From a virus (lineage: Duplodnaviria; Caudoviricetes), in the IMG/VR virus record IMGVR_UViG_3300050119_000052, positions 1 through 53,894 of that record: a DNA stretch of 53,894 nt. One strand, given 5' to 3'. Below, one piece after another: positions 5,297 to 53,894 of this stretch (the first letter of the stretch is position 1; each line of letters starts with the position of its first letter). The notes beneath the pieces are model-generated. The model worked only from the letters and a program-made list of their open reading frames with translations. It was not told the DNA's origin and made no database searches. The position numbers were made by a program, and so were the translations under genes.

Positions 5297-5300
5297 GGAA

Positions 5301-5367
5301 CACTCAGCGGAGACGCCCGTCTGCATCCTGGGTGACGAAACAAATCTGGGGCATCTCCGCTGAGTGC
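5301..5367 (-). ncRNA. orphan dual-spacer guide RNA (tigRNA-like) #1; spacer A GATTTGTTT, spacer B GGATGCAGA
   Basis: Minus strand reads CACTCAGCGGAGATGCCC-CA-GATTTGTTT-CGTCACCCA-GGATGCAGA-C-GGGCGTCTCCGCTGAGTG. 18-bp stem with one G.U; loop repeat identical to the array units. Confidence 0.8.
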
Positions 5368-5374
5368 CGCCCAC

Positions 5375-7218: not shown

Positions 7219-8283
7219 GTGGCATTAGAGGCTCCGGCGTTCGTCATTTCGGCGTCTTCCCATTCGGCTGCGCTTTTCCGCCAGGCGTCGCAGCTGTTCA
7301 TCGACGGAGCTGGTGTCGCCGAACCAAGTGGCCTCGCGGTCACCCAAAACGGTGTTGCGAACATGTCGGTCAACGTTGCCGCTGGCACGCTGTGGATGCC
7401 GGGCACGCTCGGTGCCACGACTGGGTTCGGTTCGAACGTCAACGCTCAAACCGCCTACGGGCTGCCGTCGAGCAAGACCGCGCAAGGCATGTACGCCGCC
7501 TATCAAGACGGCACAGTGAACCTCAGCATCTCCGCGGCGGACCCGACGAACCCGCGTATCGACATTGTGACGGCCGCCGTCCAAGACGCGCAATACGCGG
7601 GGTCGACGAATCTTCCGGTGTTGCAGATCATCACCGGAACCCCGAACGCGTCCCCGTCGGCGCCGTCCGCGCCCGCATCGTCGGTGGTCCTCGCGCAGGT
7701 CGCTGTCGCCGCTGGTGTGACGTCGATCGTGACCGCGAACATCACCGACGTGCGGCCCATGCTGTCGGTGCGGAGCAGTGTCACCCGCACGTCGGGTACC
7801 GCCCAGTATCCGACGCATCCCATCACTGGGCAGTACGTGGACGACGCGTATCTGAACGCGCTGCTGCGGTGGACCGGCTCCGCTTGGGTGCCTCCGTCGC
7901 CGCAGACGTATCTCCACACCGACACGATCGTCTCGGGGCCGCCGGCTGTGACGACCGGCGTCAACGGTGTCACCAGCGGCCTCGCGTTGCCGACTTTGCC
8001 GTACGCGACGCTGCTGAAGGTCTCGGCGCTCTGTTACATCCACCAAGCGACGTCGACGGATGTTTGTGAGGCGATCGTGCAGCAGAACAGCAGCACGGTG
8101 ATGGCCGCTGACATGACGGGCAGTTATGCGAGTCCGTCGATGCATAAGGTGTTCGCGGTGGCCGCGGGTGTGTCGCCCGGTACTTGGCAGCTGCTGCTGT
8201 CGAAGATCAGCGGTTCCGGGTCGTCGGCGACTGTTGTCGACAACGAGCGGACGTGGTTGCAGATCAGCGTCGAGGCGGCGTGA
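7219..8283 (+). CDS. minor tail protein
   Basis: ADPTNPRIDIV and LAQVAV...ITDVR motifs seen in actinophage minor tail proteins. Confidence 0.75.
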   Translation: MALEAPAFVISASSHSAALFRQASQLFIDGAGVAEPSGLAVTQNGVANMSVNVAAGTLWMPGTLGATTGFGSNVNAQTAYGLPSSKTAQGMYAAYQDGTVNLSISAADPTNPRIDIVTAAVQDAQYAGSTNLPVLQIITGTPNASPSAPSAPASSVVLAQVAVAAGVTSIVTANITDVRPMLSVRSSVTRTSGTAQYPTHPITGQYVDDAYLNALLRWTGSAWVPPSPQTYLHTDTIVSGPPAVTTGVNGVTSGLALPTLPYATLLKVSALCYIHQATSTDVCEAIVQQNSSTVMAADMTGSYASPSMHKVFAVAAGVSPGTWQLLLSKISGSGSSATVVDNERTWLQISVEAA

Positions 8284-8284
8284 C

Positions 8285-8791
8285 GTGAGTGGCCTGCTGA
8301 ATAGCACCGGCGTCGTCGTCTTGGAGTATGTGGGTGGCGCTGTTGGTGCCGCAGTCGTCTTGTACGTGTTCCGGGGGGTGCCGAAGTTGTTCAAGCGGTG
8401 GAATCAGTTCCTCGACGGTTGGGCTGGTACACCCGCTAGCCCCGGCGTTCCGGCCCGCCCGGGGGTGATGGAGCGGTTGCAGGATTTGACCGAGAGTCAG
8501 TTCGAGGATCGCGCGAAGATCGCGCAGGTCCTCGCGACGTCGACCGCGAATACTGCCTCAGCGTTGGCTGCCAATACCGCGGAGACAGCGAAGCAGCTCG
8601 CCAAGTGGACAGCGAAGACCGCCCAGGATGTAGCTGATCATGCGGCTAAGACCGACGCGGCGATCGTGGGCCTGACTGAGAACTTGGATGTGATCAAGCG
8701 GCAGGTTTCCCAGATTCATCATGAGACGCAGCCGAACGGCGGGGATTCGATGAAGGACCAGTTGAATCGCCTCGACCCGTTGAAGCCCTGA
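8285..8791 (+). CDS. membrane protein of the lysis cassette
   Basis: N-terminal TM, coiled coil, C-terminal PNGGDSMKDQLNR motif common next to actinophage lysins. Confidence 0.6.
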   Translation: MSGLLNSTGVVVLEYVGGAVGAAVVLYVFRGVPKLFKRWNQFLDGWAGTPASPGVPARPGVMERLQDLTESQFEDRAKIAQVLATSTANTASALAANTAETAKQLAKWTAKTAQDVADHAAKTDAAIVGLTENLDVIKRQVSQIHHETQPNGGDSMKDQLNRLDPLKP

Positions 8792-22027: not shown

Positions 22028-22141
22028 TCCGAGTCTGGCTGAGTTGGTGCTGGCTTTGGTCGGGTTCTGTGTGGCGTACGTGGTGACCCGGCGGGTCCTA
22101 GCCCGTCTACGAACGGATCAGCGATGACCGCAACTAAGACT

Positions 22142-22260
22142 CCCCACCACGCCAAGACGGCGACGTCACCCAGAGGTCCAGCGCGTGGTGGGGCCAAAAC
22201 TTCCAGCTTCCCCGGCAGCCAACCGGAACACGACACCCAACGGCGACTCGCTGCCGGGGA
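22142..22260 (+). ncRNA. TIGR-like stem-loop array, block 1 (units 1-2)
   Basis: Spacer pairs AGACGGCGA/GAGGTCCAG and ACCGGAACA/ACGGCGACT, each in stem-CCA-N9-CG(T/A)CACCCA-N9-CG-stem. Confidence 0.85.
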
Positions 22261-22282
22261 CCACTACTCAGCGGGGGAACAC

Positions 22283-22756
22283 ATGACCGGATTCAAAGAA
22301 ATCGTAGGCGACGTGCTGGAACACAGCGCCCGCAACGACCCCAACGAACTCGCAGAAGAGATCATGGGTCGGCTCACCCTGCCGCAGATCCGTGAAGGGC
22401 TAGCGCTCGCCCTCCCGGAGTACGTCCGACACGCGTTCCATCGCATCACCTACACCCCCGACCCTGACCCGTCTCGGCGAGTCAGGCAGGCGGCGGGGGC
22501 GTGGGATCGGCACAAGCAGCTCCTCGCTGTCCGCAAGCTGGGGTTGGAGGACTGGAAGCCGTTCGGGGAGTTCACCGCTGCGGATTGCACTGCGGCGGCG
22601 GAGTTGCGGCGGTTGAAGGCGTCGGAGTCGACGGCGCGAGCGGTCAAGTTCGACGCGACGGCTGAGGCTGTTGTGGCTGCGGGTGTCGCGTGTGTCGCGG
22701 ACCTGCCTGCTGATGTGCTTCTCGGTTTGTGGGGTAGCCATGACCTCGGCGAATAA
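22283..22756 (+). CDS. hypothetical 157-aa protein embedded in the array (candidate Tas partner)
   Basis: RBS GGGGGAACAC-ATG nearly identical to that of the tas gene; flanked by array blocks on both sides. Confidence 0.75.
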   Translation: MTGFKEIVGDVLEHSARNDPNELAEEIMGRLTLPQIREGLALALPEYVRHAFHRITYTPDPDPSRRVRQAAGAWDRHKQLLAVRKLGLEDWKPFGEFTAADCTAAAELRRLKASESTARAVKFDATAEAVVAAGVACVADLPADVLLGLWGSHDLGE

Positions 22757-22760
22757 GACC

Positions 22761-23050
22761 TCCCCGGCAGCCAGACCGCCTACGTCACCCACAAGGGCAC
22801 CGCTGCCGGGGACCCAAACCACCGCCACGCCACGCTGGTCGCGTCACCCACATCTGGTTCGCGTGGCGGTCCTATTCGACCCCGGCAGCCAAAGCCGCGC
22901 CGTCACCCATGTCGTGGGCGCTGCCGGGGTCCATATTCCCCCACCACGCCAGAGGTCGACCGTCACCCAACGCCCACACGCGTGGTGGGTTCACACGTCC
23001 CCGGCAGCCAGCCCGCAGCCGTCACCCAGACGAGGCACGCTGCCGGGGAC
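22761..23050 (+). ncRNA. TIGR-like stem-loop array, block 2 (units 3-7)
   Basis: About 59-nt period. Spacers GACCGCCTA/CAAGGGCAC, CGCTGGTCG/CATCTGGTT, AAGCCGCGC/TGTCGTGGG, GAGGTCGAC/ACGCCCACA, GCCCGCAGC/GACGAGGCA; invariant CGTCACCCA loop repeat. Confidence 0.9.
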
Positions 23051-23070
23051 CTCACTCATCGGGGGACCAC

Positions 23071-23805
23071 ATGACTGACCTCTACGACCCACTCCTCGGC
23101 AACCTCGCCGCCACAGTCGACGACCTCGAGATGGTTCGGAAAGCCGCCGAGAACCGTCTACGGCAGTTGACTAGGACCGGCGTCGACAAAGACGGCACCT
23201 CACGCGGCTTCGGACTACCCGAAGACCACCTATCCGTCCAAGCGGCCACAGTCATCGTCGACGGACTCAAGCGAGTCGAACACCAAGCGATCCTGCTGTT
23301 ACAGCGCCAACTCCGCACCCACCCACTACACCCGTGGATCAAGGCCCAAAACGGGCTGGGTGAGAAAACCGTCGCCCGACTGCTCGCCGCGATCCAGGAC
23401 CCGTACTGGAACGACCGACACGACCGCCCCCGCACCGTTGGTGAGCTGTTCAAGTTCTGCGGTGTCGCCGGCCCCGGTCAGCGTAAGCGGAAGGGTGAAC
23501 GGGTCACGTGGTCGCCTGAGGCGCGGATGCGATTGCACGTGATCATCGAGCCGATCGTGAAGAATCGGCGGTCGCCCTATCGGGCGGTTTACGACCAGGC
23601 GCGGGTCAAGTACGCGGAGAAGACGCACACGGAGGTGTGTGTGCGGTGCGGCCCGGCGGGTAAGCCTGCGCTGGTTGGGTCGCCGTGGCCGCCGGCTCAT
23701 CAGCATGCGGCCGCGATGCGCCTGGTGAAGCGTGCAGTTCTGCGCGGGCTGTGGGAAGAATCCCGCCGGTTGCATGGTGCCGACGAACTGAAGGTCGCAG
23801 CATGA
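23071..23805 (+). CDS. Nop-domain/IS110 C-terminal-like RNA-binding protein without a nuclease domain (TasA-like)
   Basis: 244 aa; coiled coil (RKAAENRLRQL), then WIKAQNGLGEKTVARLLAAI...TVGELFKFCGVA...RKGERVTWSPEARMRL...YRAVYD...HAAAMRLVKRAVLRGLW. No RuvC/DEDD N-terminus. Flanked by dual-spacer arrays. Confidence 0.82.
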   Translation: MTDLYDPLLGNLAATVDDLEMVRKAAENRLRQLTRTGVDKDGTSRGFGLPEDHLSVQAATVIVDGLKRVEHQAILLLQRQLRTHPLHPWIKAQNGLGEKTVARLLAAIQDPYWNDRHDRPRTVGELFKFCGVAGPGQRKRKGERVTWSPEARMRLHVIIEPIVKNRRSPYRAVYDQARVKYAEKTHTEVCVRCGPAGKPALVGSPWPPAHQHAAAMRLVKRAVLRGLWEESRRLHGADELKVAA

Positions 23806-23816
23806 CCACTCAAACT

Positions 23817-23984
23817 CCCGCCACGCCAGCCATCTGCCGACACCCAGCTCTCTCGCGCGTGGCGGGGCTCAACTACCCCGGCAGCCATGGGCCTGGCGTC
23901 ACCCAAGCGATGACCGCTGCCGGGGTCCTAAACGAATCGTCGCGCCAAGTCCCAGCCGTCACCCATCAGAGGGCCGCCCGTCGG
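23817..23984 (+). ncRNA. TIGR-like stem-loop array, block 3 (units 8-10; last stem degenerate)
   Basis: Spacers GCCATCTGC/GCTCTCTCG, TGGGCCTGG/AGCGATGAC, AGTCCCAGC/TCAGAGGGC. Confidence 0.85.
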
Positions 23985-24007
23985 AGGCTTCCCGTCGGTG
24001 GTGGGTC

Positions 24008-24631
24008 ATGACCAGCACCGAAGAGGCCAGCGGCGATCTGCGACCGTGCCCGCGCTGCAATGGACGGGGGACCGTTCACAGCAAAGAGGTTGTCCACGGC
24101 ACGCTCTACGCGGCCACTCGTCTCCGCTGCCGATGCGATCTCTGCTCTGCTGCTCGCCGGGATTACGACTCAGCTCGATTGGGTCACCGGATCCGGTCTC
24201 GCGCAGAGCAGAAGCAGGCGCGACTCGAGTCGGCCGGAGAGTTCATCACCCTTCACCAGTCAGGCCTGACGATCGCGGAGATAGCGGCCAAGGTGAACCG
24301 GTCGATCAACTTCGTTGCTGGCGCGTTGCATGAAGCGGGATATCAGCCGCGGCGGGGTATTACCGCGACTTTCCTCGAGCACGGAACCCGCGCGTACAAG
24401 GTCCGCACAGGCTGCCGCTGCGATCTGTGCCGCGCTGCCGTCACCCGCGAGAAGAAGGAAGCGCGCCAGCGGCGCCACGAAGCCATGCTCGCTGGCCAAG
24501 TGAACCCGCCGCACGGATCGACCAGCACCTACAGCAACTACACCTGCCGCTGCGATCTGTGCCGCGCTGCGTGGTCGGTCCGTATGCGCGAACAACGCCA
24601 GCGCCGGAAGCCACCGAGAGGCCGGTCATGA
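24008..24631 (+). CDS. zinc-finger (HG..Y..CRC..C x3) + HTH DNA-binding protein
   Basis: Three HG-x-CRCDLC repeats flanking GLTIAEIAAKVNRS. Confidence 0.7.
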   Translation: MTSTEEASGDLRPCPRCNGRGTVHSKEVVHGTLYAATRLRCRCDLCSAARRDYDSARLGHRIRSRAEQKQARLESAGEFITLHQSGLTIAEIAAKVNRSINFVAGALHEAGYQPRRGITATFLEHGTRAYKVRTGCRCDLCRAAVTREKKEARQRRHEAMLAGQVNPPHGSTSTYSNYTCRCDLCRAAWSVRMREQRQRRKPPRGRS

Positions 24632-38820: not shown

Positions 38821-38862
38821 CCCCGCCGTCCGCTTAGCTGCGTATCGGCGGGGTTTTGCTTT
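38821..38862 (+). terminator. intrinsic terminator in the late leader
   Basis: CCCCGCCG...CGGCGGGG followed by TTTTGCTTT. Confidence 0.7.
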
Positions 38863-38875
38863 GTCTGGAGACCCC

Positions 38876-39931: not shown

Positions 39932-40123
39932 CTTCTCCGTCTTAGTAGTGGTGCGGGTGTGCTGCAATCCGCGAGCTAACAGTTCGCGGTAGGTGTCGGC
40001 TTTGGATTGGCCTTTGTCGGCCGCGAGAGCGTCTACGGCGGCTTTGCCTGATCGGCTGATGTAGAAGCTGACCATGACCCGATCCTTACTCGGACGCGGC
40101 AACGTGGCCTCGCGGGTTGTCAT
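39926..40123 (-). CDS. ribbon-helix-helix protein
   Basis: VMVSFYISRSGKAAVDALAADKGQSKADTYRELLARGL. Confidence 0.65.
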   Translation of the reverse strand: MTTREATLPRPSKDRVMVSFYISRSGKAAVDALAADKGQSKADTYRELLARGLQHTRTTTKTEKL

Positions 40124-40483
40124 CGTCTCGCCAGCGCTTATGTTCGGGGCGTACGAGGATGGCGCCGGTTCTATCACGGGGCGCGATGCGCTTAGGCTTC
40201 GGCGGTTCCTCGCCGAAGATCTGTGCTAAGAACTTCTCTTCCGGGCTGGGCTCGCCGTCGCTTGATGCACACGCGATGTGACCGCGTGACTGGACGTGCT
40301 TGGCCCACCATTCATCGAGTGCTTGTTCGGTATTGGCTGATTTTTGGCCGTGACGCTTGGGGCAGACCTTGCACCGGGTGAGCCAGTGATCGACGCCGAG
40401 CTGTTTGGTGTAGCGGACGAAGGCAAGACCAGGCAGACCAGGCAGACCAGGCCAAGGCCAACGGGATGACGGGACGACCCCGG

Positions 40484-40828
40484 ATGACAGCAACCCGTAA
40501 CCGCTTCCACACCGCCAAACCCAAACCAGACCACAGCCGGAAGTACGGCCCCGAACACCAGAGACTCCGCGCCCACTACAACAAACAGGTGCAGGCAGGG
40601 CAGGCATACTGCCAGCAAGGACTCAAGGGATCATCCGGCCGCTGCCACTACCGCACCCGCTGGATACCACCAGGCACACCCTGGCAGCTAGGCCACGACG
40701 ACACAGGCACCCACTACATCGGCCCCTGCCACCCACGCTGCAACCAACGCGACGGGGCACGCAGGGGCGGCCAAGCCGCCGCCACCACACAACGACCACG
40801 TACTACCTGGCACTCACAAACGTGGTAG
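40484..40828 (+). CDS. packaging-associated HNH endonuclease
   Basis: YG.EHQRLR...C...WQLGHDD...GPCHPRCN; immediately upstream of the terminase. Confidence 0.85.
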   Translation: MTATRNRFHTAKPKPDHSRKYGPEHQRLRAHYNKQVQAGQAYCQQGLKGSSGRCHYRTRWIPPGTPWQLGHDDTGTHYIGPCHPRCNQRDGARRGGQAAATTQRPRTTWHSQTW

Positions 40829-40958
40829 CCGAGCCGCCTACACACAGGCCGGTGGGGGCAGGTAAAACTACAAAACGGACATAACTACGACCCGCATGTT
40901 TTCCCTTTTTTCGCGGGGTGTTCTGGAGCGAGTGCGCGCACGGGAAGGGGCGGTCGGG
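40829..40958. other. putative cos/packaging region
   Basis: Non-coding gap between HNH and terS with A- and T-tracts and a switch in strand composition; expected cos position in HK97-like phages (inference). Confidence 0.55.
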
Positions 40959-41363
40959 ATGGGTCGACAGTGCCGTAACCCGAAGTGCAACCGTCCGTTG
41001 ACTGGTCGTAAGACGATGTGGTGTGACAGTGGGTGTCGGAACGCGGCGAGTCGCGCGGCGAGTCGTGGTGCGACGGTGATCAGCCTCCCGAAGGTGGAGG
41101 ACCAGGGCCCTCTGAGCACGTATTCGGCGTTCAAGGCGGCTCTCGACGCTGCGGGGCGCCTGGACACGCCTTTAGGGCAGCTCGCGCTGTCTCATGCGGC
41201 GCTGTTGAACGCCTCGGTTGCTGTGATGGGCCGTGCGGCGTTGGCCAAGGAGCTTCGTGAGACGTTTGTTGAGGCGATGAAGGATGCCGACCACAACACT
41301 TCCGCTCTCGACGAGATCAATGAGTCCGCTGCTGCTGCGCTCGAGCTCATTCGTGGAGCCTGA
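40959..41363 (+). CDS. terS: terminase small subunit (N-terminal Zn finger)
   Basis: Position; AALAKELR and LDEI motifs. Confidence 0.7.
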   Translation: MGRQCRNPKCNRPLTGRKTMWCDSGCRNAASRAASRGATVISLPKVEDQGPLSTYSAFKAALDAAGRLDTPLGQLALSHAALLNASVAVMGRAALAKELRETFVEAMKDADHNTSALDEINESAAAALELIRGA

Positions 41364-42909
41364 TCTTGTCGCGCCGAGGTATCTGACTGTCCCGGAGTAT
41401 GAGGGCACGTTGGGTCCGCATGTGGCGGCGGTGTCGACGTTGGCGGGGTTCGCGCCTGATCCGGAGCAGCGGATTCTGTTGGATGGTGCGTTCGGGTTGG
41501 ATAGGTCGGGGAAGCCGGCTGCGTTCGCGGTGGTGGTGATCGCGCCGCGGCAGAACTTGAAGACGGGGTTCCTTAAGCAGTATTCGCTGGGTCAATTGTT
41601 CGTCGTGTCGCAGCATTTGTCTCGGCGGGACGCTCAGGACTGGCTGATGGTGTGGTCCTCACATGAGTTCACGACGGCCGAGGCTGCGCTGCGTGACTTG
41701 GAGTCGCTGATCGAGGGGTCCCCGGATCTGGCGCGGATGGTGAAGCGGACGAGCCGCGGGTTCCTCGCGAAACATGGCGCTGTTCCGGTCATCGAGTTGA
41801 AGAACGGCGCCCGGTGTGTGTTCAAGACCCGCACCAAGGGCGGCGGGCGGGGGTTGTCGGGTAACAAGACGATCCTCGACGAGGCGTTCGCGGTGCAGGC
41901 GGGGCAGGCGGGGGCGTTGCTGCCGATCATGTTGGCTCGACCGGGCGCGCAGGTGTTGTGGGCGTCGTCGGCGTGTCGACCCGAGTCGGCTGTGTTGTGG
42001 GATCAGGTGGTCCGTGGTCGCGCCGGGGCCCGGCGGATGTTGTATGCGGAGTGGTGCGCGCCGCCCCCAGCGGAGGCGTGCCGGTTGGGTGAGCGGTGCA
42101 CGCACGGCCGGGAGGTTCGCGGCTGCGGCTGCGACGACCTGGACCTGATCCGGGGTGTTCATTCGGCGATCACCCGCGGCCGTATCGACATTCAGACCGT
42201 TGTCGATCTGCGGTCGCTGCCGCCGGAGGAGTATTGCCGGGAGATCATGGGCTGGCACAACGACGTCGTCGGTTCGACGATGATCATGTCGCTGGCGAAG
42301 TGGTCGCTGCTGGCCGATGAGAAGTCTGGCCTCACATCGGTGTCCGCGTTCGGTGTCGCAGTGTCACATGACCGCAAGTGGGCGAGTATCGGCGCGGCGG
42401 GGCCGGCTAAGTCGGCGATCGGCCGCACCCACCTGGAACTGGTCGACCGGAGACCCGGCGTCGACTGGGTGGTGGAGCGGTGCAAGGAGTTGGCGAAGAC
42501 GCACAGGCGGGTGCCGTTCGTCGTCGACGACCACGGCCCGGCGGCGTCGCTGATCAAAGCGTTGAAGCAGGCGCGGGTGCCGCTGATGACAACCAGTACA
42601 GGTGAGTACGCGGACGCGACGGAACAGTTCCTCGACGGTGTGGTGGGTGAGTTGTTCACCCACGGCCCGGACGAGGTGATTCAGGACGCGGTCGACGCGG
42701 TGCAGCCGCGGCCGATGGGTGACCGGTTCGTTCTCGGCCGCAAAGCGTCGGGGGACATCACAGCGCTGGAAGGTCCCATGCTCGCGGCGTGGGGCGCATC
42801 GAACTACAAGCGGCCCACCTATGTGGTCGACCTCAACCAGTTTGGAGCCGTAGATGACGTGGTTGAGGCGGGTGACGAGGCAGCGGGTCCTGATCCACTC
42901 GGCCGCTGA
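41320..42909 (+). CDS. terL: terminase large subunit
   Basis: PRQNLKT Walker-A-like, GRGLSG, ILDEA Walker B, DITALE; start could be GTG 41353. Confidence 0.92.
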   Translation: MSPLLLRSSSFVEPDLVAPRYLTVPEYEGTLGPHVAAVSTLAGFAPDPEQRILLDGAFGLDRSGKPAAFAVVVIAPRQNLKTGFLKQYSLGQLFVVSQHLSRRDAQDWLMVWSSHEFTTAEAALRDLESLIEGSPDLARMVKRTSRGFLAKHGAVPVIELKNGARCVFKTRTKGGGRGLSGNKTILDEAFAVQAGQAGALLPIMLARPGAQVLWASSACRPESAVLWDQVVRGRAGARRMLYAEWCAPPPAEACRLGERCTHGREVRGCGCDDLDLIRGVHSAITRGRIDIQTVVDLRSLPPEEYCREIMGWHNDVVGSTMIMSLAKWSLLADEKSGLTSVSAFGVAVSHDRKWASIGAAGPAKSAIGRTHLELVDRRPGVDWVVERCKELAKTHRRVPFVVDDHGPAASLIKALKQARVPLMTTSTGEYADATEQFLDGVVGELFTHGPDEVIQDAVDAVQPRPMGDRFVLGRKASGDITALEGPMLAAWGASNYKRPTYVVDLNQFGAVDDVVEAGDEAAGPDPLGR

Positions 42910-43063
42910 CCAGACGTTCGAGGGCTTGTTGTGGGAGCAGGACAAGGAAGGCGTGACCCTTCGGGACGCGGCCCTGATCAGTGAGAAAGGCGCACAGACG
43001 CGGCTGGCGGGGGAGGTGTGGATTCCCCGCGGCAACGTGCTGTTCGCGCAGCACGACGGATAA
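42854..43063 (+). CDS. small Sm-like hypothetical protein
   Basis: TFEGLL...GEVWIPRGNVLFAQ. Confidence 0.6.
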   Translation: MTWLRRVTRQRVLIHSAADQTFEGLLWEQDKEGVTLRDAALISEKGAQTRLAGEVWIPRGNVLFAQHDG

Positions 43064-43072
43064 GAGGCGGCC

Positions 43073-44314
43073 ATGCAGGTTCTGACCAGGGATCGGCGCT
43101 TCGAAGAGGTCCGTTCGGGCACCTGGAATCCGGCTCAGCAGTGGGGTTCGACTGTGCCGCCCACCAACGGGCAGGCGGGTGGCGTCGCGGCCTCGGGGAC
43201 GACGGTGTCGGAGAAGCACGCGATGCAGCTCGCGGCGGCGTGGGGGTCGGTGTCGATCATCTGCGACGCGTTGGCGACGCTACAGATCCGGCAGTACAAG
43301 CTGGTGTCGAGTAGCGACGTCCCGGTGCAGATGGACCCGTCGCAGGTCATCGCGGAGCCGTGGCCCGAGATCAATCAGCTGGATTTCATCACCCAGGGCA
43401 CCTATTCGCTTTTGCAGCGGGGGAATCTGTTCGGCAACATCACCGCACGGGACCCGAACACCCTTTACCCGACGCAGGTGCAGCTCGTCCACCCTGATCA
43501 TGCGCGGGTTCGCCGCGCCGGCCAGGGGCAGATCGAGGTGTCCTACTTCAACAAGGTCGCGAACCCCGACAATGTGACCCGGGCGATGGCGCTGTCCGTC
43601 CCTGAGGGACTGGTCGGGTTGAACCCGATCGAGTACATGCGTAACTCGTTCGGGCTGGGTTTGGCGCAGGACGGCATGAGTGGTTCGTTCTTCGCGAACT
43701 CGGCTAGGCCCGATGGTGTCCTCCAAGTCGAGGGTGATCTGGACCCGGACGAAACGAAGGCGATGCTCGCCGCGTGGAACTCCTCCCATCAGGGCATCGA
43801 GGCCGCGTACGGCGTCGGTGTGTTGACGAGCGGCGCCAAGTGGCAACCGATCACGATGAACCTCGCGGACGCCCAGTTCTTGCAGCAGATGCAGTATTCG
43901 GCGTCGGTGATTTCCGGGATGATTTACCGGGTTCCGCCGCACATGCTCGGCATCGTCGACAAGTCCACGTCGTGGGGTGCCGGCATCGAGCAGCAGGAAC
44001 AAGGGTTCATCACCAACACCATCGGGATCTGGCTGGCCCGCTGGGAAGACTTGATGACGTCGTGGCTGCCACCAAGGCAGTTCGTGATGTTCGACCTGAG
44101 CAAGCGGCTCCGTGGTGACACGTTGCAGCGCTGGTCGATGTATCAGATGGCGCGGGTTATCGGTGCGATGAACAACCTTCAGATCATCAAGGCTGAGGGT
44201 TTGGAGATTCCGACGGACCCGGCGGTGTTGGCGACGTTGGCGGATTATGCGGCGCCGTTGAATTCGGCGCCGATGAAGCCGACGAATTCCGCAGTCGACG
44301 GAGACAAAGCGTAA
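43073..44314 (+). CDS. HK97-family portal protein
   Basis: GLNPI, FFANSARP, DAQFL, YRVPPHMLG, IEQQ. Confidence 0.93.
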   Translation: MQVLTRDRRFEEVRSGTWNPAQQWGSTVPPTNGQAGGVAASGTTVSEKHAMQLAAAWGSVSIICDALATLQIRQYKLVSSSDVPVQMDPSQVIAEPWPEINQLDFITQGTYSLLQRGNLFGNITARDPNTLYPTQVQLVHPDHARVRRAGQGQIEVSYFNKVANPDNVTRAMALSVPEGLVGLNPIEYMRNSFGLGLAQDGMSGSFFANSARPDGVLQVEGDLDPDETKAMLAAWNSSHQGIEAAYGVGVLTSGAKWQPITMNLADAQFLQQMQYSASVISGMIYRVPPHMLGIVDKSTSWGAGIEQQEQGFITNTIGIWLARWEDLMTSWLPPRQFVMFDLSKRLRGDTLQRWSMYQMARVIGAMNNLQIIKAEGLEIPTDPAVLATLADYAAPLNSAPMKPTNSAVDGDKA

Positions 44315-44321
44315 TAGCAAA

Positions 44322-44389
44322 GCACCCAGCGGAGAAGCCCGAAAGGGAAATGGGTGACGTTTTGGAGATGGGGCTTCCCCGCTGAGTGC
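44322..44389 (-). ncRNA. orphan dual-spacer guide RNA #2; spacer A TCTCCAAAA, spacer B TTTCCCTTT
   Basis: 18-bp stem that is complete only on the minus strand (two G.U); CCA-N9-CGTCACCCA-N9-CG; TAGACT at 44402-44397 and CTGTCA 18 bp upstream. Confidence 0.82.
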
Positions 44390-44419
44390 AGCCACAAGTC
44401 TACCTGAAAGGAGGTCGCC

Positions 44420-45394
44420 GTGACAGACGACGCAAGCGACGCAGCCGAGGAGAAGGCTCTGCCGAAGTCGGTCGAGTGGCGCAAGACGCGCGCCATGGAA
44501 CTGCGAGGCGCCGAGCGTCGCACCCATCTGGAGCATGTCGAGTTCCGCGACAACCCAGACGGGTCCCTGCATCTGTCCGGTTACGCATCGGTTACGAATA
44601 CTCCATACGATATGGGATGGTATTCCGAGTCGATCTCCCGCGGCGCGTTCGCGAAAACCCTCGCCGAAAACCCCGACGTGCAACTCCTCGTGAACCACGC
44701 CGGGCTGCCGTTGGCGCGCACCAAGTCGGGCACTTTGCAACTGTCTGAGGACAACACGGGGCTGCGGGTAGACGCTGATCTCGACCCGGAAGACCCCGAC
44801 GTGCAGTCGCTGTCGCGGAAGATGAAGCGCGGCGATATCGACCAGATGAGCTTCGCGTTCCGTGCGACCAGGCAGTCCTGGGACGAGGACTACACCGACC
44901 GGCAGATCACCGAATGCGATATTCACCGCGGCGATGTCAGCGTTGTGAATCAGGGTGCGAACCCGAGCACGTCCGTGTCGGTGCGCACTGAAGACGCACT
45001 GGTGGCGTTGCGGCACATCGGGCACCTCGGATTCCTCGAGGCGATGCTCGACATTCGGCGCTTCTCCGGCACTCCGCTGGAGCAGCGGGCCGGGATGACG
45101 CTGTCCGCGGCCACCACCGAGGTACTGACCCAGGTGCTGGCCCTCATTGCGACGGCGGACGAAGCAGTCGACGAGGCTCAGCCGCTCCTGGCCGATCTGA
45201 TGGGCGTCCCCAACCCCGACGAGCCCGAAGAGGACGCGAGCGATGCGACCGTCGATGACACCAGCGACGAAGGTGACGACGGCGACCAGGGCGGCGACGA
45301 GGGCGAACAGGACTCGGCCCGCAGCGTGTCGCTGGCGTTGGAAGCCCGCCGCCGCCTAGAAGCGCTCCGCTACCCGAAGAAGGACGCAGCATGA
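44420..45394 (+). CDS. HK97-type prohead protease
   Basis: GYASV, LLVNH, MSFAF, DVSVV...AN; acidic C-terminal extension. Confidence 0.9.
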   Translation: MTDDASDAAEEKALPKSVEWRKTRAMELRGAERRTHLEHVEFRDNPDGSLHLSGYASVTNTPYDMGWYSESISRGAFAKTLAENPDVQLLVNHAGLPLARTKSGTLQLSEDNTGLRVDADLDPEDPDVQSLSRKMKRGDIDQMSFAFRATRQSWDEDYTDRQITECDIHRGDVSVVNQGANPSTSVSVRTEDALVALRHIGHLGFLEAMLDIRRFSGTPLEQRAGMTLSAATTEVLTQVLALIATADEAVDEAQPLLADLMGVPNPDEPEEDASDATVDDTSDEGDDGDQGGDEGEQDSARSVSLALEARRRLEALRYPKKDAA

Positions 45395-46539
45395 CCAGCG
45401 TCGAAGTCGTGTCCGAGCCGCTCACCTACGAGCGGCACGGCCCCCACTCGTACTTCCAGGACATGTATCGGGCGCAGGAAGATCCTCGCGCCTTTGACCG
45501 CTTGTCCCGGCACAGCGCGGAGATGCGGGTCGTTGGTGAGAAGCGGGAGGCACGTGCCCGTCAGGCGCTCGACGCTGGTGACCTGGAGTACCGGGTCAGC
45601 CCCGACACAACTCAGGGCACGGGCGGGTACCTCACCGTGCCACTCTGGCTCGATCAGTTGTTCGCGACGGCGCCGCGCCCGGGCCGGATCTTGGCAGCTC
45701 TGATCGAGGCTGCGTTCGACCTGCCTGACGGTGTGTCGTCGATCAACGTCCCGATTCTGACCGCTGGCACGGCCGTGCAGCCTGTGCTCGACGACTCCGC
45801 GGCGCCGAGCGCTGATGTCACCGACGCGGCGGGTTCCTCGACCGTCGTCACCCTCACTGGCCAGTCTGATTGGCCGATCCAGGCACTGGAGCAGTCCCCG
45901 GCCGGTGCCGCCCTGGATTGGGTGATCTTCACCGACATGGCTGCCGCCTACGACGCCCAACTCGAAACGCAACTCCTCACCGGACTGGGTGCCGCTGCGA
46001 AGCAACTAGTTGGTGTCCTCAACGTCGCGGGCACGGTCGGCGTCACCTACACCAACGCGTCGCCGACCGGCGCGTTGCTGTACCCCTATCTCGGCCAAGC
46101 GACGGCTCGGGTCGGTAACAACCGCAATCTGCCGCCGGAGGCGTTTCTGATGCGGACGGCTCGGTGGGCGTGGCTCGCTACGTCTGAGGACACGCAGGGC
46201 CTCCCCTTTTTCTTGCCCACGTTTTTTCTCGGCGACGACGAGGACACCCCGGATGCGCTCGGTGGTGTCGTCGGGATCCCCGTGTTCTGTGATGACGCGT
46301 TGCCCGCGAATCTCGGTGCGGGCGGCAATCAGGATGTCATTGTCGCGTTGCGACCGTCGGACATGGTCATTTTCGAAGGCACCCCGCAGACCACCGTGAT
46401 GCGTGAGGTGCTGTCCGGGTCGCTCGGTGTCCGCTTCCAGATGCACAACAGAGTTGCTGCGATCACGAATCGCTACCCGTCCGGTATCTCGCCCATTACC
46501 GGGACGGGCCTCGTCGTGCAGTCAGGCTTCAGCTCCTGA
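45391..46539 (+). CDS. major-capsid-like protein, paralogue 1 (short)
   Basis: HK97-fold motifs GGYLTVPLWL and REVLSGSLGVRFQ shared with the next gene. Confidence 0.8.
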   Translation: MTSVEVVSEPLTYERHGPHSYFQDMYRAQEDPRAFDRLSRHSAEMRVVGEKREARARQALDAGDLEYRVSPDTTQGTGGYLTVPLWLDQLFATAPRPGRILAALIEAAFDLPDGVSSINVPILTAGTAVQPVLDDSAAPSADVTDAAGSSTVVTLTGQSDWPIQALEQSPAGAALDWVIFTDMAAAYDAQLETQLLTGLGAAAKQLVGVLNVAGTVGVTYTNASPTGALLYPYLGQATARVGNNRNLPPEAFLMRTARWAWLATSEDTQGLPFFLPTFFLGDDEDTPDALGGVVGIPVFCDDALPANLGAGGNQDVIVALRPSDMVIFEGTPQTTVMREVLSGSLGVRFQMHNRVAAITNRYPSGISPITGTGLVVQSGFSS

Positions 46540-46548
46540 CGCAATGGA

Positions 46549-46616
46549 GCACCCAGCGGAGAAGCCCGCACACCGACTGGGTGCCGCTCATGACCTGGGG
46601 TCTCTCCGCTGAGTGC
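46549..46616 (-). ncRNA. orphan dual-spacer guide RNA #3; spacer A GGTCATGAG, spacer B GTCGGTGTG
   Basis: Same 18-bp stem family; loop repeat CGGCACCCA; TAGACT at 46630-46625. Confidence 0.78.
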
Positions 46617-53650: not shown

Positions 53651-53883
53651 CGACGCAGCGGCAACGGTTCGACACGCGGGCCGCTGACGAGCCGTGGGAC
53701 ATCGCCAACAAGTACATGGGCTGGTTCGCGATCGAATGCCATTACACCCCGGATCAGGTTTTCGACATGCCGTGGCCGCAGCTGGTCGCGTTGAGTCTCC
53801 TCGCCGATGACATGGCTGACGCCCGCAACCGCCAGAACACCAATCAGGCGATGAGCAGCCGACCACCACGCCGCATGACCTAA
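53614..53883 (+). CDS. -1 frameshift extension (gpGT-like)
   Basis: In-frame slippery heptamer C CCA AAA (53614-53620); -1 frame open to TAA 53883, encoding HYTPDQVFDMPWPQL. Confidence 0.8.
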   Translation, partial: PKRRGEYADRWLATQRQRFDTRAADEPWDIANKYMGWFAIECHYTPDQVFDMPWPQLVALSLLADDMADARNRQNTNQAMSSRPPRRMT

Positions 53884-53894
53884 AAGGGGGGTTC

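Follow-up and report, generated by a model that had tools for sequence, protein, structure and literature searches.

The locus described here raises the question of what a solitary tigRNA unit, encoded in a phage genome far from the tas gene, is aimed at, and whether the sequence at positions 40900-40917, which resembles its predicted target, points to a packaging (cos) site. Passages of two TIGR-Tas papers, including 10.64898/2026.09.09.750476, describe the natural targets and biological roles of TIGR spacers as unknown. In the literature searched on TIGR-Tas, tigRNA, natural targets, prophage and cos site, neither stand-alone units nor a cos target is described, and the words orphan, solo, standalone and antisense are absent from the main text of one TIGR-Tas preprint.

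The window, meaning the whole stretch of DNA that was analysed, is a complete 53,894-bp assembly in a single contig with ~64% G+C, and the runs carrying its sequence are labelled as peat metagenome. Both ends of the record (53870-53894 joined to 1-404) fall in a tail-assembly-chaperone frame that continues into the tape-measure gene, so the assembly is circular, the point at which it was cut open is arbitrary, and nothing about the packaging ends follows from it. It was opened at a AAAAGGGGGG stretch in that frame, where the G/T frameshift probably has its slippery site. The nearest phages among those compared are distant, with portal identities of at most 66% (8 IMG/VR contigs) and terminase large subunit (terL) identities of at most 46% (32 contigs), and the similarity of isolate phages to the window is far weaker than that of these IMG/VR relatives. 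A megablast search of 40000-45000 against phages returned a 72-bp terL match and nothing more, and Rfam (gathering) and tRNA scans of the whole window gave no matches.

The protein that would use such a guide is encoded at 23071-23805 (+) and is a Nop-domain Tas protein of 244 residues. It matches NCBIfam TIGR_Tas_endo NF052498.1 at 1.2e-57 and 195 bits (cut-off 100), over profile positions 2-215 of 215 and residues 10-232 of the protein, as well as the PDB chains of the TasR-like 9mty (8.5e-9) and TasH 9w04 (1.7e-8); the gene also matches PHROG 4285, named 'transposase'. Pfam shows no further domain, and neither HNH nor RuvC lies N-terminal to the Nop core. Since 244 residues leave no room for a nuclease domain, the protein is TasA, in agreement with the original prediction of a non-cutting protein. 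A longer ORF at 22909-23805 would add 54 residues that are array sequence. The stem-loop TIGR-TasA proteins PlTasA, MbTasA and BlTasA are likewise nuclease-free Nop-domain Tas proteins, whose published activity is guide-dependent DNA binding without cutting (PMC12045711, 10.64898/2026.09.09.750476, 10.64898/2026.08.11.744272).

The main stem-loop TIGR array at 22140-23930 (+) comprises nine units in three sub-arrays interleaved with + strand genes, runs in the same direction as tas and is followed by one extra degenerate unit near 23965. The loop core TGGGTGACG served as the lead to these nine units (22.1-23.9 kb) and to a third solitary unit at 46.58 kb. All 12 units, array and solitary together, read stem-CCA-N9-CG-N4-CCA-N9-CG-stem on one strand, and all 12 fit the TIGRFinder motif set (box C = CNA, box D = YG). 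The window thus shares with known TIGR-TasA systems the palindromic stem, the box C CCA, two 9-nt spacers, a 9-nt loop and the box D CG, together with units upstream, downstream and inside ORFs beside tas. Motif matches elsewhere in the window (42275, 42278 and 38296), and two in an IMG/VR relative, L056, were put down to chance on account of odd boxes or short stems.

Several observations concern the array and its neighbours. Its units lie inside open frames (22124-22285, 22909-23070 and 23685-24011, all +) that are in frame with the downstream genes, namely 22286-22756, tasA and 24008-24631, the last with an ATGA overlap; they resemble the intragenic units described for BlTasA. The hexamer TAAGAC(T/C) precedes the first unit of two sub-arrays (22135 and 22754, +), is similar to the TAGACT of the solitary units discussed below and may represent internal promoters. 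Between sub-arrays, the 156-aa protein of 22286-22756 has phrog_4604 (function unknown) as its sole match. Downstream of the array, the 207-aa protein of 24008-24631 (+) carries three C-R-C-D-L-C repeats and weak PHROG matches to HNH endonuclease and HTH families.

While the array units lie next to or inside tas, a feature of TIGR-Tas systems, three orphan units do not. These are single units at 5.3, 44.35 and 46.58 kb, on the strand opposite to the array, 17-24 kb from tas and in intergenic gaps of the late operon. Orphan #1 (5299-5368, -) carries spacers A GATTTGTTT and B GGATGCAGA. Orphan #2 (44322-44389, -) forms a hairpin between the portal gene (43073-44314, +; PF04860, 6.8e-62) and the protease gene, and its RNA runs in the order stem, CCA, spacer A UCUCCAAAA (44360-44368), CG UCAC CCA, spacer B UUUCCCUUU (44342-44350), CG; on the + strand its two 9-mers read AAAGGGAAA (44342-44350) and TTTTGGAGA (44360-44368) and flank the loop core. 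Orphan #3 (46549-46616, -), with spacers A GGTCATGAG and B GTCGGTGTG and loop CGGCACCCA, sits after the ORF at 45391-46539 and was missing from the original prediction, which spoke of two orphans only.

The orphans differ from the array in their stems, which are 19-20 bp long as against 10-12 bp, and in having a TAGACT each. The predicted fold of orphan #2 has a free energy of -38.2 kcal/mol (z -5.35) and a 19-bp stem, which is uninterrupted as minus-strand RNA only. Across the stems, either strand gives 148 Watson-Crick pairs; the motif strand adds 9 G.U pairs with 1 mismatch, the opposite strand 1 G.U pair with 9 mismatches. The RNA strand was assigned because the motif set demands an A ending box C, which one strand alone supplies; it agrees with the coding strand of tas in three places, namely the window array, the IMG/VR relative L054 and Gordonia phage Morrissey. 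The orphans are consequently on the minus strand and antisense to the late genes. The three orphans have wholly different spacers within conserved stems and flanks, and each retains both boxes and the loop in intact form, with the array consensus sequence in two of the three. Judged on its sequence, guide #2 is a genuine stem-loop tigRNA unit.

The hexamer TAGACT occurs only three times in the genome (44397-44402, 5375-5380 and 46625-46630), once before each orphan and 8-9 nt from the stem; the copy at 44397-44402 (-) lies upstream of the stem of orphan #2. This -10-like hexamer could be the -10 element of promoters belonging to the orphans themselves, an assignment that stays putative because a sigma-70-type promoter scan found no full promoter, and no site near the orphans. 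The orphan-family pattern had no match in IMG/VR; a looser version gave one, which was rejected as it has no stem and lies inside an ORF.

Other phages carry TIGR units as well, and there are 91 records of end-defined actinophages with TasA. In L054, a 404-aa ORF at 7307-8521 (-) encodes a Tas homologue in its 3' part (34% identity) and four embedded stem-loop units in its 5' part, and this complete tas gene, with its units, is inserted in reverse orientation where orphan #2 lies in the window, between portal and protease. A 1.3-kb insert occupies the portal-protease slot in L056 too. Gene 42 of Gordonia phage Morrissey (32402-33505, -), annotated as hypothetical, is a further Tas homologue; four stem-loop units precede it, one lies within its 5' end and one follows it, none of them annotated in the record, and these six guides have no self-match of 15/18 or better in Morrissey.

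The geometry of the target was derived from the text of published papers. A passage of Faure 2025 (PMC12045711) states that TasR leaves 3' overhangs; section 5 of 10.64898/2026.08.11.744272 places the box C adenine and the first paired guide base of PlTasA at the unwinding junction; and a passage of PMC13421893 describes strand A as flanking duplex (17-23) followed by a 3' unpaired segment (16-14), with positions 1-8 pairing with spacer A. All three texts put each spacer on the 3' half of its own strand, so one strand reads 5'-A + reverse complement of B-3'. The strand, the spacer naming and this rule, as originally used, agree with both the TIGRFinder motifs and the text-derived geometry. The cut position stated in the literature implies, by count under this geometry, 10-nt rather than 8-nt overhangs, a discrepancy taken as an off-by-one in wording.

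For guide #2, with A = TCTCCAAAA and B = TTTCCCTTT, the predicted 18-bp target is TCTCCAAAA+AAAGGGAAA, of which the genome contains no exact copy. It was rightly described as AT-rich, with 33% G+C in a genome of ~64%, and the target originally given for guide #1 follows likewise from the unit at 5320-5346. Orphan #3, in contrast, has a GC-rich predicted target, GGTCATGAGCACACCGAC.

Against the full target TTTCCCTTTTTTTGGAGA, the + strand site TTTCCCTTTTTTCGCGGG at 40900-40917 is identical over the whole spacer-B half (9/9) and over 5/9 of the spacer-A half, with 12 contiguous and 14/18 total identities; recomputation returned the same counts as the original prediction. Spacer A would form 5 Watson-Crick pairs and 2 rU.dG pairs at this site, with mismatches at positions 4 and 6, and the idea that the phage's own DNA is spared by spacer-A mismatches fits this sequence. 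Under the opposite geometry (reverse complement of A, then B), the same site reaches 10/18 only, and that arrangement was discarded. A second 14/18 match to the target of guide #2 is found at 38854-38871 (TTTTGCTTTGTCTGGAGA, 7/9 + 7/9), 2 kb to the left of the terminus discussed below. A spacer-A-type half site, TTCTGGAGC (7/9), noticed post hoc at 40921-40929 (+), lies 12 bp too far to the right to adjoin the B half and has a chance expectation of ~10%; to judge from its position, such a displaced half site would fit an escape insertion. The fold of 40860-40960 was unremarkable on either strand (z +1.0).

The site lies between the ORF at 40466-40828 and the small ORF that precedes terL (41284-42909, +; phrog_9, 8.8e-37). 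The original description of this interval as an HNH-terS gap stands as to the position of the site between two ORFs, and less well as to their names. The ORF at 40466-40828 (+), the last gene before the terminus, matched no Pfam, PHROG or NCBIfam family, and is called HNH-like here after its homologues, which carry the name HNH endonuclease in 5 of 12 records among the matches listed. The small ORF at 40959-41363 (+) is terS by position alone; it corresponds to phrog_6975, of unknown function, had no match when searched in phages, and has an alternative start at 40896 that would cross the probable terminus.

A physical end near 40.9 kb had been set beforehand as a test of the idea, and contig ends and synteny indeed place a likely one at 40898/40899. 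One run, from which the window itself may come, has a 10,014-nt contig with an end at 40899 and a 13,004-nt contig with an end at 40898, and in a run of another study a 151-nt contig begins at 40898; two further runs contain, among the matches listed, no contig piece bridging 40898/40899. Because contigs are not reads, such ends are a hint and not a terminus map. The two long contigs share 2 nt only (GT), which does not fit a de Bruijn branch with its k-1 overlap. Actinophage cos sites usually have 3' overhangs, which an overlap of 2 nt does not fit either.

Comparison with other phages points to the same place. Among the 32 terL relatives, many contigs have their first base 250-650 nt ahead of terL; several open with G and a pyrimidine tract, and such starts resemble the GTTTTCCCTTTTTT with which a left end at 40898/40899 would begin in the window; two of the portal relatives start at the identical base, with GTCAGGATTTCCCTCCCC. 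In all 12 isolates listed of 44 records matched, no gene follows the homologue of the HNH-like gene, which stops 117-325 nt short of the record end, and isolate records conventionally start at physical ends. The position between the last right-arm (HNH-like) gene and terS/terL fits a cos-type packaging site, and the order HNH-like gene, end, small ORF, terL is common to the window and to the HNH-terS-terL (HK97-like) cos sites of actinophages. The interval 40780-41000 contains two weak direct repeats and no inverted repeat. The left physical end of the packaged DNA, of cos type, is thus probably at 40898/40899, and the guide-like site starts 1-2 nt inside it, on the terS side.

Taken together, these results tentatively favour, at something below an even probability, a guide #2 aimed at the cos end of a relative, where TasA would act by steric occupation while the phage's own DNA is spared through spacer-A mismatches. 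A promoter of its own would drive orphan #2, TasA would take up the RNA, and the resulting RNP would bind, without cutting, a cos-proximal sequence of a related phage or of a capsid-borrowing element. TasA proteins are guide-dependent steric repressors, and the bound RNP might hinder recognition or cleavage by terminase, or reduce terS and terL expression. Escape of the phage's own cos would rest on 5/9 spacer-A pairing and on mismatches around the centre of that spacer. The spacer pair may itself derive from such a DNA end.

Coincidence is nearly as likely. It would make orphan #2 a working TasA guide for an unrelated AT-rich site, such as a terminator-RBS junction or a promoter, in a host or mobile element, and the likeness to the terminus would come only from a shared T-run. 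The best self-match is 13-15/18 for 13 of 13 units, so that 14/18 alone is ordinary, and 8% of shuffles of the same composition attain 14/18. Nowhere in the genome but at 40899-40901 are there pyrimidine 12-mers with 8 or more T, and the pull of this single T-tract on every target that has a long A/T run makes the coincidence partly forced; block shuffles that preserve the A7 run place their best match at the terminus tract in 376 of 1860 cases (20%). As the T-run draws matches, the real information resides in the adjoining TTTCCC and in the register. The 12-nt run is rarer, being found in 4 of 300 Markov genomes and in 1.0% and 0.77% of letter shuffles (nulls 0.8-1.3%), and a run of at least 12 within 40870-40930 arose in 1 of 3000 letter shuffles, which argues against coincidence, as does a match that begins 2 nt from the probable end. 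The corrected chance of the match is roughly 0.3-3%.

Searches for the full target bear on the same alternative. In IMG/VR the 18-mer has one match, before a start codon in a 41-48% GC contig; in species genomes it has 48, none of them Actinomycetota by title, with a median GC of 0.40; and in metagenomes it occurs in 90 stretches, with a median GC of 0.45 in 80 of the 90, and none of these 80 encodes a homologue of the HNH-like protein, the terS-like protein, terL, portal or TasA. Many perfect matches fall at junctions of a T-tract and GGAGA before a start codon, as coincidence would have it, while the lack of an Actinomycetota host target among the 48 genome matches stands against it. The original expectation that perfect 18-mers would lie upstream of related terS genes failed within the sequences covered, since no match lay there and all were in unrelated, mostly lower-GC DNA. 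None of the 8 portal relatives or the 32 terL relatives reaches 14/18 for this target, an absence that counts for little because the closest relatives compared are distant, and no satellite was found. The original proposal that guide #2 recognises the cos region of a related phage or satellite is partly supported, by the tigRNA unit itself, the nuclease-free Tas protein, the location of the site at a probable end and the fit of self-sparing to the sequence.

Wider searches gave a similar picture. The 14-mer GTTTTCCCTTTTTT has at least 117 loci, none of which, among the matches listed, has packaging-gene or TasA homologues. Under the derived geometry, the target of guide #1 has 6 IMG/VR matches, all in 39-47% GC contigs, and that of guide #3 has none. 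Across 48 sequences (470 kb in all), 22 guides from the window, L054 and Morrissey were compared under either geometry, and the derived one yielded no match of 16/18 or better save the exact-match loci of guide #1; in the other geometry, one L054 guide (L054a) reached 16/18 in six terL-relative loci. A passage of 10.64898/2026.09.09.750476 notes that short TIGR spacers give many false target matches, which again speaks for coincidence.

An improbable third reading is that the guide is self-directed, binding the phage's own left end or cosB to time terminase access, damp the late operon or cover the DNA end. The complete spacer-B match and the 5 Watson-Crick and 2 rU.dG pairs of spacer A are compatible with it, TaTasR acted in published work on an E. 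coli site with full spacer-B and 6/9 spacer-A pairing, and the duplex opens readily at a free DNA end such as the probable one beside the site. Full identity would be expected of a self-regulator, however, and the mismatches here flank the centre of spacer A, the most sensitive position in TasH and TasR according to passages of published studies, in which spacer A also reportedly engages first. Least probable is that the orphans are inactive, as relics of reversed TIGR cassettes or as mRNA-stability or attenuation hairpins between late genes whose 'targets' are meaningless: their location after the portal gene and after the ORF at 45391-46539, the kind of place after late genes at which late-operon hairpins are common, the + strand RNA that folds too (-38 kcal/mol), the negative sigma-70-type scan and the absence of the orphan pattern elsewhere in IMG/VR are in keeping with it, but the intact boxes and loops, the G.U pairs that favour minus-strand RNA (8 versus 1 for the + strand) and spacers that differ completely between conserved stems and flanks argue against it.

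The reading in which guide #2 is directed at a relative's cos end can be extended to a fuller model, rather unlikely as a whole, in which promoter-driven, stand-alone antisense tigRNAs and TasA occupy the cos/terminase site of competing phages or capsid-borrowing satellites, and in which the phage's own cos escaped by changes, or by a 12-bp insertion, on the spacer-A side. In known TIGR-TasA systems the units accompany tas; the three solitary units of the window, 17-24 kb away and antisense to late genes, depart from that arrangement. Phage-borne CRISPR arrays and solitary repeat units, some of them far from their effector, are thought to be used against rival viruses or satellites. Guides are carried by the virus in both cases, whereas the guide and effector family of the window differs, its two 9-nt spacers read opposite strands, and neither a PAM nor cutting is involved. 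In the packaging interference known from satellites and phages, proteins redirect or block terminase small subunits and act on the terminase or the capsid. The contested step would be alike, but in the present case the packaging site on the DNA would itself be covered by an RNA-guided protein.

A guide target tied to a packaging site would make the question of natural targets testable at the bench. If true, the reading proposed here would give TIGR-Tas guides a natural target class for the first time and would also be the first instance of packaging interference guided by RNA. Units that stand alone and seem to have promoters of their own also show that guides can escape tools searching only around tas genes. 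Should the link to cos prove coincidental, the locus remains an example of tigRNA cassettes scattered through a genome and of a slot between the portal and protease genes that has taken insertions repeatedly.
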